In this document: piece after piece, positions 1 through 16,800 of the stretch
Layout: every line of letters begins with the position of its first letter
Numbering within the stretch: the stretch's first letter is position 1
Source: Octopus vulgaris
Lineage: Eukaryota
Assembly: GCA_951406725.2 (NCBI GenBank)
Contig: OX597831.1
Coordinates: 55,738,001 to 55,802,000, forward strand
DNA length: 64,000 nt
Direction: 5' to 3'
Translations under genes and position numbers: made by a program
Notes under the pieces: generated by a model
The model's database searches: none
What the model saw: the letters and a program-made list of their open reading frames with translations, nothing else
Told to the model about the DNA's origin: nothing

Positions 1-656
1 GCTATCACACTACGGGAAAATCTGACATTGTTTGAGGCAGATTCAGCTAGTTTCCTTGAAGGTTTCCTAATCCAGGATGAGTGTTGACTTCATCACTTTG
101 AGCCAAAGCCAAAACGACAATCCAAGCAGTAGAAGCACCCTCCTCACCTGCTCCAAAGAAGGCCAATGGGGGAGGCAAAATACATTTTATTTATTGATTA
201 TCTTCAAAAGAGCCACACCATCAATGGAATGTAATATGCCATTTTGCTGAGGCAGTTACGAAAGGCTATCAAGACCAAACGCTCAGGAAAACTGACGAAA
301 GCGGTCTTGTTTCATCTGGACAATGCTCCAGCATATAAATCCTTGGTTTCAAAGGCTGCTGTGCGTGACTGTGGCTTTGAACTGGTTGATCACCATCCCT
401 ATTCTCCTGATTTGGTCCCATCTGACTATCATCTGTTCACCAACCCGAAAAAGCACTTGGATGGGAACCAGCATCGGGGTGATGAGGACGTCACACCTGC
501 TGTTGATGACTTCTTCACCACTTGGATTCAAGCTCAACAACACCGCTGGAAGAAGTGTGTGAACTGCAAGTGGGAGTATGTTGAAAAATAAACCTCATTT
601 GGTAGTATTTTGTGAGTGCATCTCGGTCAACTTATAAACTTTTCAGCCGACCCTCG
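1..656 (+). mobile_element. Decayed mariner (DD34D) transposon, 3' part
   Basis: Transposase motifs DE.xxHHFEP, DNAPAY and HPYSPDLVPSDYHLF with stops and deletions. Right TIR ...aaacttttcagccgaccctcg followed by TA at 657-658. Confidence 0.9.
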
Positions 657-2887: not shown

Positions 2888-3059
2888 ATGGCGGCGATAC
2901 GTCCGTCGTCTGCGACCATAGCATGTCTTTATATTACTTTTCTGGCTTTTGTTTTGCTGTGTATCTACAGTTTCACCCCGTTTAATGGACGCCTTATTGC
3001 GGAGAATGTTAGTTATGGAGTGGGTTTCCTTCTTTTATCAACGTTCATTTTAGGTTCTG
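2888..3059 (+). CDS. Exon 1 (first coding exon) of the SatP-YrdC fusion gene
   Basis: [57 protein letters not shown] has two hydrophobic segments. Donor G|gtaagt at 3059/3060; phase 1 matches the exon 2 acceptor. Confidence 0.8.
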
Positions 3060-4715: not shown

Positions 4716-7700
4716 GTATATATATAAGGACTGTTTCAACGAAGTCGCGCCTTGCCCTTACCTTCGAAACGCGGAGTAGCCGAAACAGGGGCAACTGAAG
4801 AAGGGGAATATTCTTTGTGTTGTATGTCTTGTACTCTGTTTTTTCGTTGTTTGAAAAAAAAGTCCGTTTCCATGTTTTTGTTTTTATGTTTTCGTTTCTC
4901 ATTGTGTTCAACGTTTTTTTGTTGTCCTGTACCTATATATGCATGTACATATACATATAGATGTAGGTATGTACATATACGTATGTATATATGCATATGT
5001 TTTATATATTATTTTGTTATTATATATATATATATAATATGTTTGTTATTATATACACATGCATACTTACATATATTCACGCATACATATATAATATTAT
5101 TATTTGCATCTCGAGAGGCTTAAGACTACAGTTATGATCTCAAAACGATTTCCACCTTTGATATCATATTGACCGTCGTCCTAAGTCAATTACAACATAT
5201 CAACAGGTTGTGCCTCGATGTATGTTATCTTTGATAGTACAAGTTTCCTCCTTGAAAATGTTATCCAATATAAACGACATTTATATTCTGTAATATGATC
5301 TTCATGTATCATATAACAAAACAGCCTGATAGCATTCTCCAGCCAGTAAATTCTCTATTGCACTTCAGATATTATTGTCTTGCAACTAATTTTTTCTCGT
5401 AAGCTTGCTGATATATTTGTTGGGTCGTTATTTAGACAAACATGCAGCATTTTATATTTTTGTGTAACATAACTTTCATAATATCACGTGAGTGTTTTAC
5501 ATGGAGCTATTTTGATGTTACCTGTCTGTCTATCTGTCTGTCCAATATCCATCCAACCATTTTTGCGTGCTTACATGCAGGCGTGACTGTTTGCCTGTCT
5601 GTCTTCTGTCTGTCTGTCTGTCTGTCTGTATTTATGTATGTATGCATCATGCATGCAAGCATGCATGTATTTATATATGTATGTGTGTATGTATGCATGT
5701 ATGTATGCATGCGTCCAAGCATGCATTTATGTATATATGTATGTGTGTGTATATTTGTGTATGTATGCATGTATGTATGTATGCATCCAAGCATGCATTA
5801 TGTATATATGTATGTATGTGTGTGTATATTTGTGTATGTATGTATGTATTTGTGTACGTATGTATGCATGTAAGTACGTACGTATGTATGTATGTATGTA
5901 TGTATGTATGTATGTATGTGTGTGTGTATGTATGCATGTATGTATGTATGTATGTATGTATGTGTGTGTGTGTGTTTGTGTATATATGTATGTTTGTATG
6001 CGTGTATGTATATATGCATGTATGTATGTATGTATGTATGTATGTATGTATGTATGTATGTATGTATGTATGTATGTCAAGATATTCAGACAAAAACAAA
6101 AGAGGTATGCTGATGCAGAATTTGTTGTCTCCTTTGGTCATGAATGACCATAGGATTGCACCTAGAAAGTTCCCCTCTGAAGTTCAAGTCCGGGCAAGGT
6201 TGTTTACGGAAGACCAGCAGTCGCCCATGCATATCAGCCTCCCCTCTTCATGCCACCGATGTTGTCCAAGGGAAAGGCAAAGGCTAGGCACCTGTGACGT
6301 CGCAAGTCATTCCTACAACTGAGTGAACTGGACTAAAGTGAAATATAGTGTCTTGCTCAAGAACACAACACACAGCCCAGTCCAGGAATCGAACTCACAA
6401 CCTCATGTCTGTATGTACTTTTATCATAAATCATGAATTGAAAAAAAAAATTATTGAAATTGGTTTCGTTTACCATACATTTGCATAGTAATTAGTTAGG
6501 CCAATGGAGTGAATCTCTATGCAGTCGCTGGACTTGCAAGAAATAGCAGCCAAATAATATCTGATCTTGGAAAAGGAAAGGCAGTTTTACTCGAAAAAAA
6601 AAAGACATGATGGTCATGGTTGAGATGTATCAGTCTGAACAGCTCTGGGGTTAAATAATAGTTTTGAATTTTGGAACAAAGCCAGTAATACCGAGGGGAG
6701 GGGTAAGTCGATTACATTGACTCCAGTACTCGAATGGTATTTATTTTATTGACACTGAAATGATGAAAAACGAAGTCGACCTCGCCGATATTTGAACTCA
6801 GAACGTAATGAAATAAAAAAAAATACCAGTAAGCATTTTGTCATCCTTTAACGGTTCTTATTTCTTTATTGACCACAAGGGGCTAAACATAGAGAGGACA
6901 GACAAGGACAGACAAAGGGATTAAGTCGATTACATCGACCCCAGTGCGTAAATGGTATTTAATTTATCGACCCTGAAAGGATGAAAGGCAAAGTCGACCT
7001 CGGCGGAATTTGAACTCAGAATGTAACGGCAGACGAAATACCGTTGAGCATTTCGCCCGGCGTGCTAACGATTCTGCCAGCTCGTTGCTTCTGGTTTCAA
7101 ATTTTGGTACCAGGCCAGCAATTTTATCGGGAGCGGGTAAGGGAATTATCAAATAATCCTTTCTACTATAGGCGGGAGACGGAGGACATGTCCATACCAG
7201 CGCATGCAACAGATAGCTATGAGATGGGAGGCTGGGGGTTGATGCGCATGCGCACACAGTTCTTTGTTGGAAACGTGATGTTACCATCTGATGTTCTCGA
7301 TGGTTTTCAGGGCTCTGCTATCGAAGCCATCGATCCTCTTTGCTAGGGTCTTCGAGAGGGGCCACGTTTCTGCGTCATAGAGGAGACTGGAGAGGGCCGA
7401 TGCGTTGTAGATGCGGAGCTTCACTTTCCGGGAGATAGAGCAGTTGCGCCAAGTGGAAAGATCTTGCCGAAGCTCGATGTCACCTTGGAGGATAGAGAGG
7501 GGCTGGGACGGGACCATCGGCGATAGAGAGAACTGGTGGACCTGGTCAACTCCATGTATGATGACATCTCTGGGACCACTGACCTGGAATGACCCCAACC
7601 CCATCAAGCAAGAGCATGAAGCAAGCAAGAATCAAGAAAGCATGCACTATAGGCCGCAGAGCATTTTGTTCGGTTTGCTAATGAATTCTACCTTCTTGCC

Positions 7701-10124
7701 ACCTTTTTCTAAGAATATATAATAGGAAATTTGAAAAAAATTACAATTTTCAAAGAAAATACTGAAACAACTGCATTCCTGATTTTCCTAAATTTAATAT
7801 ATTCATCAGCATTTAATTGACATTTTAATGTTATGAAAAGCTCTGGAGTAATTTGCTGGCGCCTTTTATAACCTAAGGTGGGATCCAGTGAAACCGCCAA
7901 AATAAAACTAGTTATTTTGATCGTAGGTAGCTGTCATTAATTCAAGTTTCCCTTTCCAAATAAAGACTCTGAAAGCTTTTAACATCATTTTTATAAAGTT
8001 CTTTTTCTTTTTTCTTTTTTTCTTTTTTTCAGGCATTACGGCAGGAGATGTTGAAGACTCCCTGTTACGTGGCTTACTCTTATGTCTAGGCTCGATGTGG
8101 GCCGCAGTTGGTGTTTTCAATGTCACCAGAGATATCTCAAGGCCACCTACCATCTGGTCCAATGCAGCAAATGAAGCTCTATTTCCTGGATATGGAGCTT
8201 TCTTTTTCATATTCCTTATTTTTGTCTTTGGATCTATCTTGCACCAAGCAACCTTTACTGCAGTTCTTTCTTTCGGTCTTTTTTTGTCCACCATTTTCGA
8301 AATAGCCTCTTTATGGCGTGCTGTGCATATGAGTGCCGGAGCGTATTATGTCCTACTTTCTGCATTAGTTGTGTATATGATGTGCCAAAAGCTGGTTAAT
8401 AAATTCAAAGGGGGTGATTTCAAGACCACGCAGAAAAGAAAGTCATCTGATCCAGACGTCTCAAACGATTACACTATTGTAGGGTATTCAATGGAAGTAA
8501 TAGTTTTTGCAGTTTTTGCTAGTCACGTGACTGGAGCTACAACAGTTGCCAATAATGCTTTTATGTGGGTCGGTTCGGCAGGATTTTTTCAAGCTGTGTG
8601 CGGCATTGTGGCTTTACGTAGGAATGACCCTTACTGTGGTTGCTACTTTACCTTGTATGGTACATTCTGGTGTGCAGTAGCATACAACCTAGCACTTAAT
8701 CATTTTTCTGGCACAAATGACTTACCACTACTACCTGTCTTTATCTTCTTCCTTTTCACATTTTTATTGGCCAGTTTGATTTCCATAGCTCGAGAAATGT
8801 TCCATGCACTACAGAATATCTTACTATGTATCTTCTGCATTGCCTTTTGTGTTGATGGTGTCCAAGGCCATTTCCTTGGTGGTATGGGTTGGGTTTGCTT
8901 TTTGTTTTCTCTTTATGGACTTGCAGCTCATATGAGCCGAATGAGACAAACTCCTTATAAACTTCCATTGGGTCGACGCCCATTTGATCGAGCTCAAGTA
9001 CAACAGAGCCTTAAAAAACATCTTAGTTGCTGTGCAAAACGTTTATACAAACAGGACACCAAACAAAATGGTGACGGCCTGTTCTCTACTGAATTTTCCG
9101 ACATGGGGTATTCCAAGTATATTGAGCTTGATACCATCGGCTTTGCCGTCAATGCAGTTTCTGCCTTATCTATTTTGTGGATTCCTGCCAATTTCAATCT
9201 CCTCTCCATGCCATGGACAACTGTACTTGGCGGGGTGGCACAGTTTACCGTGGGTTGTATAGGGTTTGCTCGTGGACTTACATTCGAAAGCTGTTCATTC
9301 ATTATATTTAGTACCATGTGGCTAATTCTTGGAACTGCTCGTAGTCTTGGGACATTGGGTCAGGACAATTCAGTGGCCATGTGTGTGGGGAGCATTTCAT
9401 ATATGGTCATTCTTCTACTTCTTATAGGACTTTCTCTAGTTGTAAGCAAGACCTGGTTCCTGATCACTTTCCTTTTCGAACTTATCGCATTGGCATTTTT
9501 GCTAAATATCTTAGCAGTGCCTTCATATGAAGCATATGAAATAATCGTGGTGCTTCTATTTACTGCTGTTTGTATTTATGGTTTCTTAGCTTCTGCTTTA
9601 AAGGTTGTTTGGGGACGAGATGTACTCCCAATGGGAAACCCAATCATAGAAGTCAGTTTTCTCCATTCTCAGGGTCACAAAGCCTTCTGGGCAGATGCCC
9701 AAAAACAATCCGGAGTCAAAGCGATTGCAGGTAAGGAACTTATTTCTCTCCAATGTTAATAAAATTTGTCGATCTTTCAACTCCCATCTTCATAGTTATT
9801 CTGATAAGCATAACTAGTAATTGTATAAGTCTGCAGCAATAATTTCTGTCACGACTGGGATGAGATGTCGAAAGTAACGAAGGTTCGAATCACGCCGGAG
9901 TCACCAAATGTAACAGGCTATGTTACTATTAAATTCTCGAAGTCGATGAGACAGCGTAATAATAAATATCGAAGAGAAGAATATTGTCTATAGCTTTTAT
10001 TGGTGGGTTGGACCAGAAATACACGGCAAGGCTTTTAGTAGTAGCCAGGCAGTTTAGTTGGTTAAAGAGGATGACAACAATGAAATACCTCGCGTGTCCT
10101 TAGATGAATGAGTGTGTGTGTGTG

Positions 10125-10745: not shown

Positions 10746-13180
10746 TGGCAACTAAAGTAGGTCAATCCTAAAACAAAGGATTAACCTTTCCACGACCACA
10801 GAAGGTCTCCAAGGTCAAATTATCCAAGAACAGGGAGTCGGAAACGAAAGACCGGAAATCCATCTGACAATGAACAATATTGTGGTTTCGGTTTCGAATC
10901 TTCTCAACCTTTGCAGCTGGTCCTAAAGGTCTGCTTGATCAGAGCTGACATACGGCTATACCTCCATTACTCATTGGCTCAGGCCATTGGAGCCGCATGG
11001 GACATGGGTAGGCAATACAGTTCATCTTTGAAATATGGAAGGAATGTTTCATAACTGTTTCATTTTTCTGTATTTGCACCTTTTACCTGTTCAGCATCGC
11101 CTATTTCCTAATTCTCCATCACTACATAAAAAAAAAAAATCGTCCGGTATAAATGCAATTTATTGCACAATATTAACCGCTTTATATTGATTTAATATTA
11201 TCGTCCTTAAAATTAACATAAGTAAAATATGTTTAATAAAAAAAATATTGCAAACAATGGTAAATGATTTTTCAGCCTAATAGCAATTTTCCCCACAAAA
11301 TTCTCTGAATTTTCCCCCAGCAACCTGAAATTTCTTCACGGGGATGATTATAGTTCTGTCTGCGTGGTCACTCGAGCTGTTAAAAATAGCAGTCAAATCT
11401 TCTCCAAATCACATCCTAGTATTTACATTACCTATATTGTTCTAGATACACTATCTGAAGAAGAAAGTAAAAAAAAAAAAAACCGTAAAAAATAAATAAA
11501 TAAACAAAAGACCTGGTCTGATCGGGAGCTAAACATCAAAACTAGCATAATTAAACTGGTGGTTAATAACAATTGGATAAAAACTAAACAAAACAGTATT
11601 GTTCTTTGTTGTATCAAATAAATTGAAAACGACGTTTCACCACATTTTTTTTCAGACATCATGAACCGAGGAGGGATAGTCGGTATTCCAACAGACACTG
11701 TTTATGTATTGGCGGCTGCAGTAAAATTCCCTGAATCAGTGGAAGTAAGTTGATTGTTACATTAAATAGATTGTTTCACTGTATGCATATAGCAGTAATT
11801 ATGTACCGTAAATCCTCGAGTTTGTCCGCCCTTGAGTATAATACGCAGGGGATTTTTAGGGGGCTGTACCTCTGAAAAACCTAAACCTTGTGTATAATAC
11901 GCACCCCTTCTCTAACTTGAGTCGTGCGTAATTAAGCCAGCAGCACCTAGTCGAACAAACACTTCCGCGCATGCGTACTACAATAATGGTGATGTTCTTA
12001 ACTGTTATATGGGAATGTAAATATGTTTGCAAATTGTTTTTGTTATATGTTATTCTGTGTTCTTAATACTTTTATTTTCATAAATGTTGCTTACTACAAG
12101 TTATGGAGGATTCTTTTATGACGTCATTGCTTTTAGGCTTAGCTTAAGATATTTTCGCGTCTGAATAAACATTGCCGGACAAACTCAGACATTGCTTAGA
12201 AAATATTTTTCATTTTTAACCTCGTATATAGTACGCACTAGGGATTTTGACCTTTAAAGTTTGGGGAAAAAAATGCTGATTATACTCGAGGATTTAGGGT
12301 AATGTTCGAGAGAAGATGGATCACGGTGCATCCGGCCGTAGCCGATCAGGACAATGTGTGCTCGGAAAGTTCTGCCGCAGGTCGGGCAATGGTGGTCTGC
12401 TGGGAATGAAGGCAAGGAGTTGGCTCTGGACTTGCGCCACTCAAGCTTTTCTAGGTCTCCTGCGAGCCAGTTCAGTTCGTAGAAGGTGGCACTTCTGTTG
12501 GTGCAGCTACACCAGGCAGGGCGGTCCTGTGCTTGCATTTCCCAGGGATTGATCTGAAAGCACTTCAGTGAGGCTTTGAGTGTATCTTTCAAGCGTCTTT
12601 TCTGCTCACTTCGTGTGCGCTTGCTTTTTGTCAATTCACTGCAAAACAGTCTTTTGGGTAGTCGTGTGTCAGGCATTCGAACAATCTGGCATGCCTACCT
12701 GCGCTCTCCACAGCAATTATTATTAAATTAGAAACAATTATACACGCATAGCGTATTCGAAATACTTACACCTGTAAGTAATAGGGAGGTCCTACGGGAA
12801 AATGAGCGTTTAATAGGAAACCGTATGGGAATTTGGTTCAAACAACGTCTTGTTAAGACGAAATTTCTTATACACTTTTTGTAGCATCCAATGGATTTAG
12901 CATTGCCAAATCCTTCAAAGACAGTCCTATGATTTTTCAGAATTTCTTCTAAAGTTTTATTCTATGAAATAGAAAGAAAAAGATTAATAAATATGTATAA
13001 TATTTTTTCATGTCAAGACTTCCTTGAAATATAGTATTTTTTTCAAGTGTTCCCAAGAGCAAAATGATTGAAAAACACTGCTTCAACATATATACGATAT
13101 TGAAATATCATAAAAGTTCATGAATAAATTTGTTGCGAAGTATAATACGCGTTTCGATTGTGTGTGTGTGTGTGTGGGGG

Positions 13181-13829: not shown

Positions 13830-16800
13830 GTTATTACCTAAACTGTCTCAAAAATGTGCATCGTGTATAAATGGCAGCATTACACAATTACTACAAGAGT
13901 AGATAATCTACTATGATTCAATATATTAGTCTTTTTTTTTTTTTTGTAACATTTCCTCTAATGACGGTGGCAAACTGGCAGAATCGTTACCGCACTGGAC
14001 AAAATGCTTTGCGGCAATTCGTCCGTTTTTTTACGTTCTGATGTTCGAATTCCGCCGAGGTCGACTTTGCCTTTCATCCTTTCTGGGTCGATGTAATAGA
14101 CTTAACCGTTTCCCCAAAAATTGTTAACCTTATGCCAAAATTTGAAACCAATATTTCGTCTTATGACGGTAGAGAACTAGCGGAATCATTAGCGCATCAA
14201 ACATAATGTTAAATGTCACACCTTTTGACTCTTTACGTTCTGAATTCAAATACCGCCTAGGTCGACTTTACCTTTTATCCTTTCTGGCTCGATAAAATAT
14301 AATACAACTCGAGTCCTGGAGTCGATGTGATCGACTAACACCCATCTGCTAAAATTGCTGGCCTTGTACCAAGACTTGAAATATTTCACTTCACGTAAAG
14401 TATATAGGATAAATCATGATGATATAAACGTTATCTTAGAAATTTTATTTCAAAGATTTTAATGAGACAAATTGATAAAAAAAATCCTATCATAGCATTA
14501 ATGATAAACATAATAGAAAGATTTATGATATAAATGTTATATTAAATACTTTGATGATACAATTGGTGTTATAGAGACCTTAATGATATAAATTTTATAT
14601 AAAATGTTTTATAAGATTCACTGATAATGATATAAATGTTATAACAGTGACTTTGATAATGTAAATGTTATAATAAAAATGGTATAAGAAAGACATTGAT
14701 TAAATAAATGGTATAAAGACGTTGATATAAATTATCTGTACACAGAGTATGATGGTGTAGAGACCGTGCTATTTTCTTTAAAGGAGAATTCTTGATTCTA
14801 GTGTTTGTTTATAAGTCTAAGTCCCATGGCTACTGAAGATAAGGCTGGACAATTGTCGTACTGGTGACACATATTAACGTAGAAACACGTTTAACAACTG
14901 TCCTCTTATCACTAGACTCTAAGTTTGTCCTTTCCTCTCGTGATATACCAATTCTGGAGAATTCTTTATTCTTGGAATTGGATTATCTCCCCTTATATAG
15001 ATCTGGTCTAAATTGCCATTTGATAATTATGATACATCCTCTAGTGGCAGAGGTAATTTTAATAAACCAGAAATTTATGTTGTATGTTATTTGATATACC
15101 GTATATGTTGTTAATAAAAAGAGATCTTGATTTGAAGAAATTTTGACTTATTTTGTTTGCTATTGAATAATTATATTTTGTTTGTCTACCTTTATTGGGT
15201 CTAGAGAGCATACTTAACTAAGAAACTAGCTGAAGACAGACCAATGTCTATGTGGATATCCAATGTAAACCAACTGGCCGCTGGACGAGAGCAATTCGGT
15301 GAGATGCTGTGGGCCTTCATGAATGCCGTATGGCCGTCTACGATATCCTGTGTAGTAAACAAAGGTTAGTTTAATATTTACACATATTTTTCATGCGTAT
15401 TACTGGCAATAGCATCATTGACTAAAGGTTTCCAATCATATGTTTATGTTGCTGTTTAACCTCATGTCAATTAGACTTGTGTAGATTACAATAAAAAAAA
15501 TTCTATCGTTGACTAACTTATTTCTTTATTGCTCACAAGGGGCTAAACACAGAGGAGACAAACAAGGACAGACAAACGGATTAAGTCGATTACATCGACC
15601 CCAGTGCGTAACTGGTACTTAATTTATCGACCCCGAAAAGATGAAAGGCAAAGTCGACTTCGGCAGAATTTGAACTCAGAACGTAGCGGCAGGCGAAATA
15701 CCTATTTCTTTATTACCCACAAGGGGCTAAACATAGAGGGGACAAACAAGGACAGACATAGGTATTAAGTCGATTACATCGACCCCAGTGCGTAACTGGT
15801 ACTTAATTTATCGACCCCGAAAGAATGAAAGGCAAAGTGGACTTCGGCGGAATTTGAACTCAGAACGTAGCGGCAGACGAAATACCGCTGAGCATTTCGC
15901 CCGGCGTGCTAACGATTCTGCCAGCTCACCGCCTTCTTGTCTATTTATATATCAAGGACTACATTGTCCAATGGGTCTCTTCCGTTTTAAGATATTAAAA
16001 TAGAATTTGAGATACCCTGAGTGCTGTTTCTTGTGGATTAAGCGACTTAATAGGAGTTTACTTGTTGTTTGATATTATTTCGTGACAAAATTGTAAAATT
16101 TCTATTAGAATAATAAAAAAGAAAAACAAAACAAAATATCAATATTATTCTTTTATTTCTTCTCCAGGACCATGGTTAGACAGCTTGGGTGTTGGATATG
16201 CCGGCAAATACATTGGTAGACCTGACAGCATCGCAGTACGCATGCCCGATAATATGGTGACGTCATTCTTAATCGATCACACGGGTCCCGTATCAACGTC
16301 GTCTGCTAATCCTACTGGTGAAGCAGACACTACGCACCATCTGCAGGTTATTGCAAAGTTGGGCCTGAAAAATGTAAGTTGGATGCATCAACTCCCTTAG
16401 TGGATTTATTTTCTTAACATTGATCGATCACTCAAGAAATGTTATTGAAAATCTAGTTGAAAATCTGATAGAGTTGTATTAGACAGAAAGTAAAAAGTGT
16501 GTACCGTTGTAGAGATCAGCTGCCCAACGGATGTGAGGCGTACGTCTATGCAAAACTGATGAAATACGTACAGCTTTGATATCCAAGCTGTAGATTTTCA
16601 TTTGTTAGTATTATCATAGGCTTATGTTATAAAAGATCTATGTGGAAACTTAGAAATGTAGAGGTTCTCCAAAACAGAACAATCCAAGCTGATTCGTATT
16701 CTCCGCTTATGTAATTAATAAACGCACACTCACTGATTGTATTTCATTTCAGTTTTATTGTTAATTAATTTATTTATTAGTTTGTAAACGTTCTTTATAT

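Follow-up and report, generated by a model that had tools for sequence, protein, structure and literature searches.

SatP monomers are described as having six helices and assembling into a hexamer; the protein carries an NPAPLGL signature and a constriction made of F17, Y72 and L131, and a model of Ato1 places both termini inside (PMC8379382). In TsaC/Sua5 the residues KxR/SxN and T/S/R are reported to be required (PMC10321239; PMC6004061). Among these, Arg58 binds pyrophosphate and belongs to a tetrad essential for ATP binding, and a further residue, His67, binds threonine (PMC6004061). Both kinds of domain were found in one animal protein family by Ghasemi et al. (bioRxiv 10.1101/2025.05.26.656167; iScience 2026, PMC13316224), who described the vertebrate Ato family as three Gpr1/Fun34/YaaH domains plus a Sua5/YciO/YrdC domain. 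According to their 'dimerization hypothesis' a dimer of triple-unit chains makes a six-unit ring, and the discussion of the iScience version proposes a coupling to substrate import. Protostome members are there said to be few and possibly transferred, and the family to be absent from mammals (PMC13316224). This was the sole relevant paper in a literature search on metazoan AceTr/Gpr1. The literature on the fish genes ch211-153b23.4 and.3 consists, by its listed titles, of transcriptomic studies; a dual RNA-seq study of Shigella infection has, according to a figure legend, zebrafish si:ch211-153b23.4 among its labelled genes (10.1101/719781).

The triplicated SatP architecture with a YrdC domain and the idea of a dimer ring are already in print. 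The preliminary description of the locus studied here, which was made from the DNA letters, had rated the novelty of a possible covalent half-hexamer too highly; that finding is in itself ordinary, and the paralogue split and the loss of the KxR motif are modest additions to it. Added by this locus are the occurrence of two paralogues, A and B, in molluscs, amphioxus and vertebrates alike, the lack of the KxR arginine in B, the presence of KxR together with NPAPLGL-like motifs in A, and a B protein in the platypus. In the passages of Ghasemi et al. that we examined, neither the KxR loss nor the pore residues of the animal proteins are discussed. As far as the running text goes, outside figures and trees, the words octopus and platypus do not occur in the supplement, nor octopus in the iScience main text.

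The window analysed in this study is a stretch of 64,000 nucleotides from Octopus vulgaris. On the plus strand it contains an open reading frame at 8033-9730, which begins behind an AG acceptor with a long pyrimidine tract upstream and ends at a GT donor. The best homologue of the encoded protein was P0005 from Octopus sinensis (LOC118766235, 1166 aa). When P0005 was mapped by tblastn, six exons with GT-AG boundaries throughout were obtained, of which the open reading frame is the second, and the resulting protein of 1166 aa showed 1153 identities to P0005 (Table 1). Exon 1 was directly joined to exon 2 in contigs from three of four runs (X1, X5 and X10, from three studies), for which RNA status is presumed, as none of the runs containing the sequence is registered as RNA. 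The contigs of X1 and X5 extend 1,787 letters beyond the donor of exon 2, long enough to contain the coding part of exons 3-6 (1,631 bases). The joining of exons 2 to 6, and with it the fusion to YrdC, is based on the GT-AG boundaries, the RefSeq model and the orthologues. The tail of about 330 aa that follows the YrdC-like domain was modelled by AlphaFold with a pLDDT near 30.

Table 1. Exons of the octopus gene and SatP-fold repeats encoded by exon 2, in window positions.
Feature	Position	Strand	Evidence
Exon 1: start codon (ATG) and first two helices of SatP-like repeat 1 (aa 1-57)	2888..3059	+	phase-1 GT donor; tblastn 100% to P0005 1-58; contigs
Exon 2: 1698 nt, aa 58-623; remainder of repeat 1, all of repeats 2 and 3, beginning of YrdC-like domain	8033..9730	+	tblastn, gene model, contigs
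Repeat 1, last part of helix 2 through helix 6 (aa 58-182)	8033..8406	+	AlphaFold helices; SatP Z 16.6; HHalign through paralogue
Repeat 2: aa 202-375, six helices, YGTFW motif, terminal LPLG	8464..8985	+	HHalign, AlphaFold
Repeat 3: aa 418-598, six helices	9112..9654	+	SatP Z 20.5, rmsd 2.5 Å, 172 residues; profile vs PDB E 6.6e-07
Exon 3: YrdC-like domain, PTDTVY motif	11656..11744	+	tblastn, gene model
Exon 4: YrdC-like domain; K659-x-L661 instead of KxR; R665, W670	15205..15364	+	tblastn, gene model, alignment
Exon 5: YrdC-like domain; R731, S752-A-N754	16168..16373	+	PF01300 E 2e-05 for the frame alone; gene model
Exon 6: end of YrdC-like domain (S791, R808), low-confidence tail of ~330 aa, stop codon	17365..18540	+	tblastn, AlphaFold, gene model

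Many matches to exon-only relatives, amphibian ones among them (P0125-P0138, P0153), end at the same ...IA[G] position (window 9730), which suggests that molluscs and vertebrates share the intron that follows exon 2. The introns contain microsatellites and high-copy repeats. Elsewhere in the window, the frames at 235-588 (plus strand), 7284-7631 and 12257-12694 (both minus strand) resemble what we take to be a fragment of a mariner-type transposase and fragments of LINE reverse transcriptases; Pfam gave no convincing match for these three frames.

AlphaFold, run on an alignment of 84 sequences (80 homologous proteins and four more), predicted 18 membrane helices, six in each of three groups (residues 6-182, 203-360 and 418-584), with a pLDDT around 90 across most helices; roughly 16-18 helices had been expected. 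Repeat 3 is the unit closest to SatP and the best conserved repeat, with a Foldseek TM of 0.76 against SatP 5ZUG, and repeat 1 is the most diverged. When repeat 1 was folded alone, SatP was nevertheless its top match among 48,161 chains (rmsd 3.2 Å, 172 residues; Z as in Table 1), followed by the urea channel UreI (Z 14.3) and a designed barrel (Z 12.8). With UreI in second place, the fold alone leaves the substrate unfixed. Foldseek with repeat 1 alone returned nothing at E ≤ 0.001, SatP occupying the top three rows with a best E of 0.085. In the ESM Atlas repeat 1 reached scores of 0.83-0.84, with PF01184 on 26-42% of the members, which is under the 0.9 level and was taken as a lead only.

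Profile comparison by HHalign gave 97.6% for repeat 2 against repeat 3 (E 2.7e-12, 170 columns). Compared directly, repeat 1 was only weakly similar to repeat 2 (38.8%, E 3e-4) and to repeat 3 (1.1%), yet it matched repeat 1 of the paralogue A at 95.1% (E 3.4e-8, 160 columns), which in turn matched four single-unit AceTr proteins at 98.1%. The single-unit AceTr profile set directly against repeats 1, 2 and 3 gave 43.4%, 95.9% and 99.2%, and the reversed-profile controls stayed at or below 1.65% in 21 of 21 comparisons. The family profile also matched SatP in the PDB with E values of 1.8e-06 and 6.6e-07. Superposition on SatP was done for repeats 1 and 3, and repeat 2 was assigned by HHalign together with its helix pattern. 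No match to PF01184 was obtained for the octopus protein at the gathering score (repeat 2 alone, E 1.1), and a Pfam scan of exon 2 alone found no family at E ≤ 1; four of the nine scanned proteins, all orthologues, passed the PF01184 cut-off. A search of the Octopus genome with PF01184 gave no match despite the presence of two divergent family genes, so this blank is uninformative. Because PF01184 does not match the octopus protein, the AceTr link rests on profiles and predicted structure. From predicted structure and profile homology we concluded that one chain holds three SatP-fold units.

The internal triplication claimed in the preliminary description was borne out in this way by the 6+6+6 helices, the HHalign comparisons and the SatP superpositions. 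Its placement of repeat 2 from N202 (8464) and of repeat 3 from E422 (9124), with their motifs, agreed with our result, as did the composition of repeat 1 from exon 1 and 8033 to about 8405 and the view that repeat 1 is the more diverged and least certain unit. Its account of the gene stood for the three SatP units and overlooked the C-terminal YrdC/Sua5 domain encoded by exons 3-6. Overall we regard its interpretation as partly supported.

NPAPLGL(M/S) was absent from all repeats of the octopus protein, which carry SATIACL, DYTIVGY and ELDTIGF in repeats 1, 2 and 3, in agreement with the erosion reported before. The F17 site is occupied by T17, E212 and N431 in repeats 1 to 3, and the Y72 site by L76, Y266 and F483, the register of repeat 1 being less sure in both cases; for the L131 site two SatP alignments disagree on the register in helix 5. 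Across the alignment 79 of 84 rows have Asn at the F17 site of repeat 2, where octopus has the Glu. In repeat 3, Asn occupies this site in all seven amphioxus rows and in 24 of the 25 rows of the mollusc group, and Ser in 46 of the 52 rows of the vertebrate group. The inward-facing polar Q244 is present in 77 of the 84 rows, and E476, W487, G457 and G472 of repeat 3 are invariant. Identity between molluscs and vertebrates was 20% in repeat 1, 21% in repeat 2, 32% in repeat 3 and 59% in the YrdC domain; the values for the three repeats indirectly support the earlier suggestion of unequal pores.

The YrdC-like domain was recognised by PF01300 with 89.8 bits at aa 625-804 of P0005 (family criterion, > 25 bits), and its model superposed on Sua5 of S. 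tokodaii with Z 22.6 and rmsd 2.6 Å. In the alignment K659, S752, N754, T636, R731, S791 and R808 are kept, and among them are the SxN residues (S752, N754) and the counterparts of the threonine residues T33/S181/R195 (T636, S791, R808). These positions hardly vary in clade B: K659, N754 and R731 were found in 80 of 80 rows, S791 and R808 in 79 of 80. The arginine of KxR (the R58 site) was found in none of the 80 clade B rows with a residue there; the motif is KxL in the octopus gene (K659-K-L661) and KxQ in most relatives. Two further sites are changed throughout clade B: all 80 rows have Trp at that of His67, and all 81 have Arg (R665) at that of Asn62, a pyrophosphate site. Against TIGR00057, a model made for prokaryotes, the octopus domain scored 81.8 bits with a cut-off of 123.2, and two paralogue A proteins also fell short (110.2 and 120.3). 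The fused domain is the best conserved part of the protein at the identity given above, and we therefore concluded that it is not decaying. A separate two-exon YRDC-like gene with an intact KxR (KKRNPLKP) and a SAN motif lies on contig C21 at about 23.816 Mb (1489-1656 and 2528-2755 of its locus piece) and is likely the housekeeping t6A enzyme.

A search with the YrdC region gave 390 matches, and taxa are known for the best 120. Among these 120 there were at least 20 named molluscs (cephalopods, gastropods and bivalves), eight Branchiostoma, 89 vertebrates including the platypus, and three without a name; therian mammals and other protostome phyla were not among them. The platypus protein (P0067) is a full-length member of clade B. 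A representative search revealed a second type, with catfish si:ch211-153b23.3 and scallop and amphioxus members. In the Octopus genome PF01300 gave three matches, namely the two exons of the YRDC-like gene on C21 and a locus on C18, the contig of the window. This locus is a second triple-SatP-YrdC gene, the octopus paralogue A, at 45.829-45.849 Mb (L008:9088 to L010:8830), some 9.9 Mb away from the gene in the window, and its membrane region is broken by short introns. The window gene is paralogue B, of the clade with si:ch211-153b23.4-type proteins. Paralogue A has an intact KxR (KERPSEKP) and NPAPLGL-like sequences in repeats 1 and 2 (EPGALGL, EPMGMGF). Among 129 motif-bearing proteins the KxR arginine occurred in eight, every one of type A. 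Lys stands at the R665 site in paralogue A and in the YRDC-like gene of octopus, both of which also have Arg58.

In a YrdC-domain tree of 40 rows, from which one chosen protein without the anchor motif was omitted, A and B were split with 99/98, and within B the molluscs (98/95), amphioxus (95/97) and vertebrates (98/99) formed separate groups. A tree of repeat 3 plus YrdC, with 23 rows picked to span the taxa, had the same splits with SH-aLRT 99-100, that of A and B with 100. The trees are unrooted, the canonical YRDC outgroup being a long branch placed inside clade A. With groups defined after the first tree, AU tests on unrooted topologies rejected a single clade of all molluscs (p 9e-55), and also transfer into molluscs from ray-finned fish (molluscan B with ray-finned fish, p 6e-06) or from sharks (molluscan B with sharks, p 2e-06). 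Molluscs, amphioxus and vertebrates each have both paralogues, in octopus on one contig, and this favours an old duplication over the transfer suggested by Ghasemi et al. The simplest reading of these sequences would be a duplication that predates the mollusc/chordate split; transfer from a stem lineage may be the remaining alternative. We infer that A and B are the two clades of the published work.

Several side observations concern the history of the family. Near-consecutive gene ids of A and B in amphioxus (LOC118416699 and LOC118416701, with contigs of equal length) and in fish (ch211-153b23.3 and.4; P0030, P0171, P0062, P0161) suggest an old tandem pair. Amphibians have an additional, strongly diverged clade B-like copy (P0149, P0153, P0207), with fully eroded YrdC motifs in P0149. 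The Haliotis rubra model P0009 comprises seven near-identical tandem YrdC domains of type A and no membrane part, and is possibly an assembly or annotation artefact.

The architecture of three fused SatP-fold units and a YrdC-like domain without the KxR arginine is almost certain. For its function we favour, at somewhat better than even chances, an 18-helix three-unit channel that forms a dimer ring, conducts small polar anions mainly via repeat 3 and has the YrdC-like domain as its regulator. With six helices per unit, all three units would have the same orientation and the YrdC domain would be cytosolic. Pairing of two chains into a ring of six units is likely; closure through dimerisation would follow the analogy of the hexameric SatP, and the half-hexamer idea is plausible. 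In such a channel repeat 3 would be the most constrained pore. Since Asn mostly replaces the Phe17 of the SatP constriction in repeats 2 and 3, the pore would be wider and more polar, and small polar anions are proposed as substrate with low confidence. The YrdC-like domain would bind a nucleotide or an amino acid and regulate the channel instead of serving tRNA modification, with t6A synthesis left to the separate YRDC-like gene; for this regulatory role we see the odds as balanced. A tentative and somewhat improbable extension is that the old duplication common to molluscs and chordates yielded an enzymatically intact A and a pseudo-enzyme B, whose YrdC would sense ATP or an amino acid and gate an Asn-lined channel, with A and B possibly assembled into a hetero-dimeric six-pore ring.

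The main rival is an enzyme with altered catalysis, in which the YrdC-like domain would adenylate or carbamoylate a small substrate, possibly delivered by the channel, by means of R665 and an amino-acid pocket reshaped by the Trp. The near invariance of the other catalytic residues in clade B and of R665 itself is in keeping with this, and R665, at the pyrophosphate site of Asn62, could take the place of Arg58 and keep the domain catalytic. YrdC-like domains in HypF and TobZ do other carbamoyl chemistry (PMC9654439), and the import coupling discussed by Ghasemi et al. (PMC13316224) points in the same direction. However, the arginine that was lost is the pyrophosphate-binding member of the essential tetrad (PMC6004061), and because A and the YRDC-like gene have the Lys plus Arg58, clade B has one basic residue fewer. 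We consider live catalysis possible but doubtful.

It is less probable, and in our judgement unlikely, that the membrane part no longer transports and acts as a scaffold or anchor that keeps the YrdC-like domain at the membrane, possibly in a hetero-ring with paralogue A. Transport may have been lost altogether, since no repeat retains NPAPLGL or F17; the low mollusc-vertebrate identity of repeats 1 and 2, the motifs retained in A and the near-consecutive gene ids of A and B in fish and amphioxus agree with a scaffold. Against it, the inward polar positions are conserved, with the Asn and Q244 of repeat 2 and the invariant residues of repeat 3, a pattern that fits a maintained pore. The direct HHalign values of repeat 1, against repeats 2 and 3 as well as the single-unit AceTr profile, would suit a protein of two true repeats with an unrelated six-helix N-terminal domain, the case that the preliminary description had itself named as its refutation, but the connection through repeat 1 of the paralogue to single-unit AceTr proteins and the rank of SatP as best fold match, including the first three Foldseek rows, largely refute this reading, and we regard it as highly improbable. 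If the extension with a pseudo-enzyme B is true, a conserved animal metabolite channel-sensor was derived from a tRNA-modifying enzyme and kept as far as the platypus. The locus sets a KxR-intact paralogue apart from a KxR-less one, names specific residues with which function can be probed, and argues for vertical inheritance in molluscs and chordates and against transfer from vertebrates.

Compared with the animal Ato family (fish si:ch211-153b23.4), the octopus protein has the same three tandem six-helix SatP-fold units and C-terminal PF01300 domain, would share the dimer ring, itself a hypothesis there, and is 54-60% identical to vertebrate members across the YrdC region. It groups with vertebrate sequences (99/98; SH-aLRT 100) in a set that does not include the reference sequence of the published work. 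It differs in being a mollusc member, with the tail of about 330 aa and 1166 instead of about 900 aa. With SatP/YaaH (AceTr, PF01184; PDB 5ZUG, 5YS3) it shares the six-helix fold and the GG..Q, YGxFW-like and LP[IL]G elements, whereas it carries three units per chain and a fused enzyme-like domain, has lost NPAPLGL and F17 and has no Pfam match. The likeness to TsaC/Sua5/YRDC (threonylcarbamoyl-AMP synthase, PF01300) lies in the fold and in the K, SxN, T, S and R site residues; the octopus domain differs by KxL for KxR, Trp at the His67 site, a score under the TIGR00057 cut-off and its tether to the membrane, in a genome where an intact YRDC-like gene exists separately. The layout of triple unit and YrdC is the same in paralogue A (fish si:ch211-153b23.3; octopus C18), but A retains KxR (KERPSEKP) and the NPAPLGL-like motifs in repeats 1 and 2 and has more introns in the membrane part.
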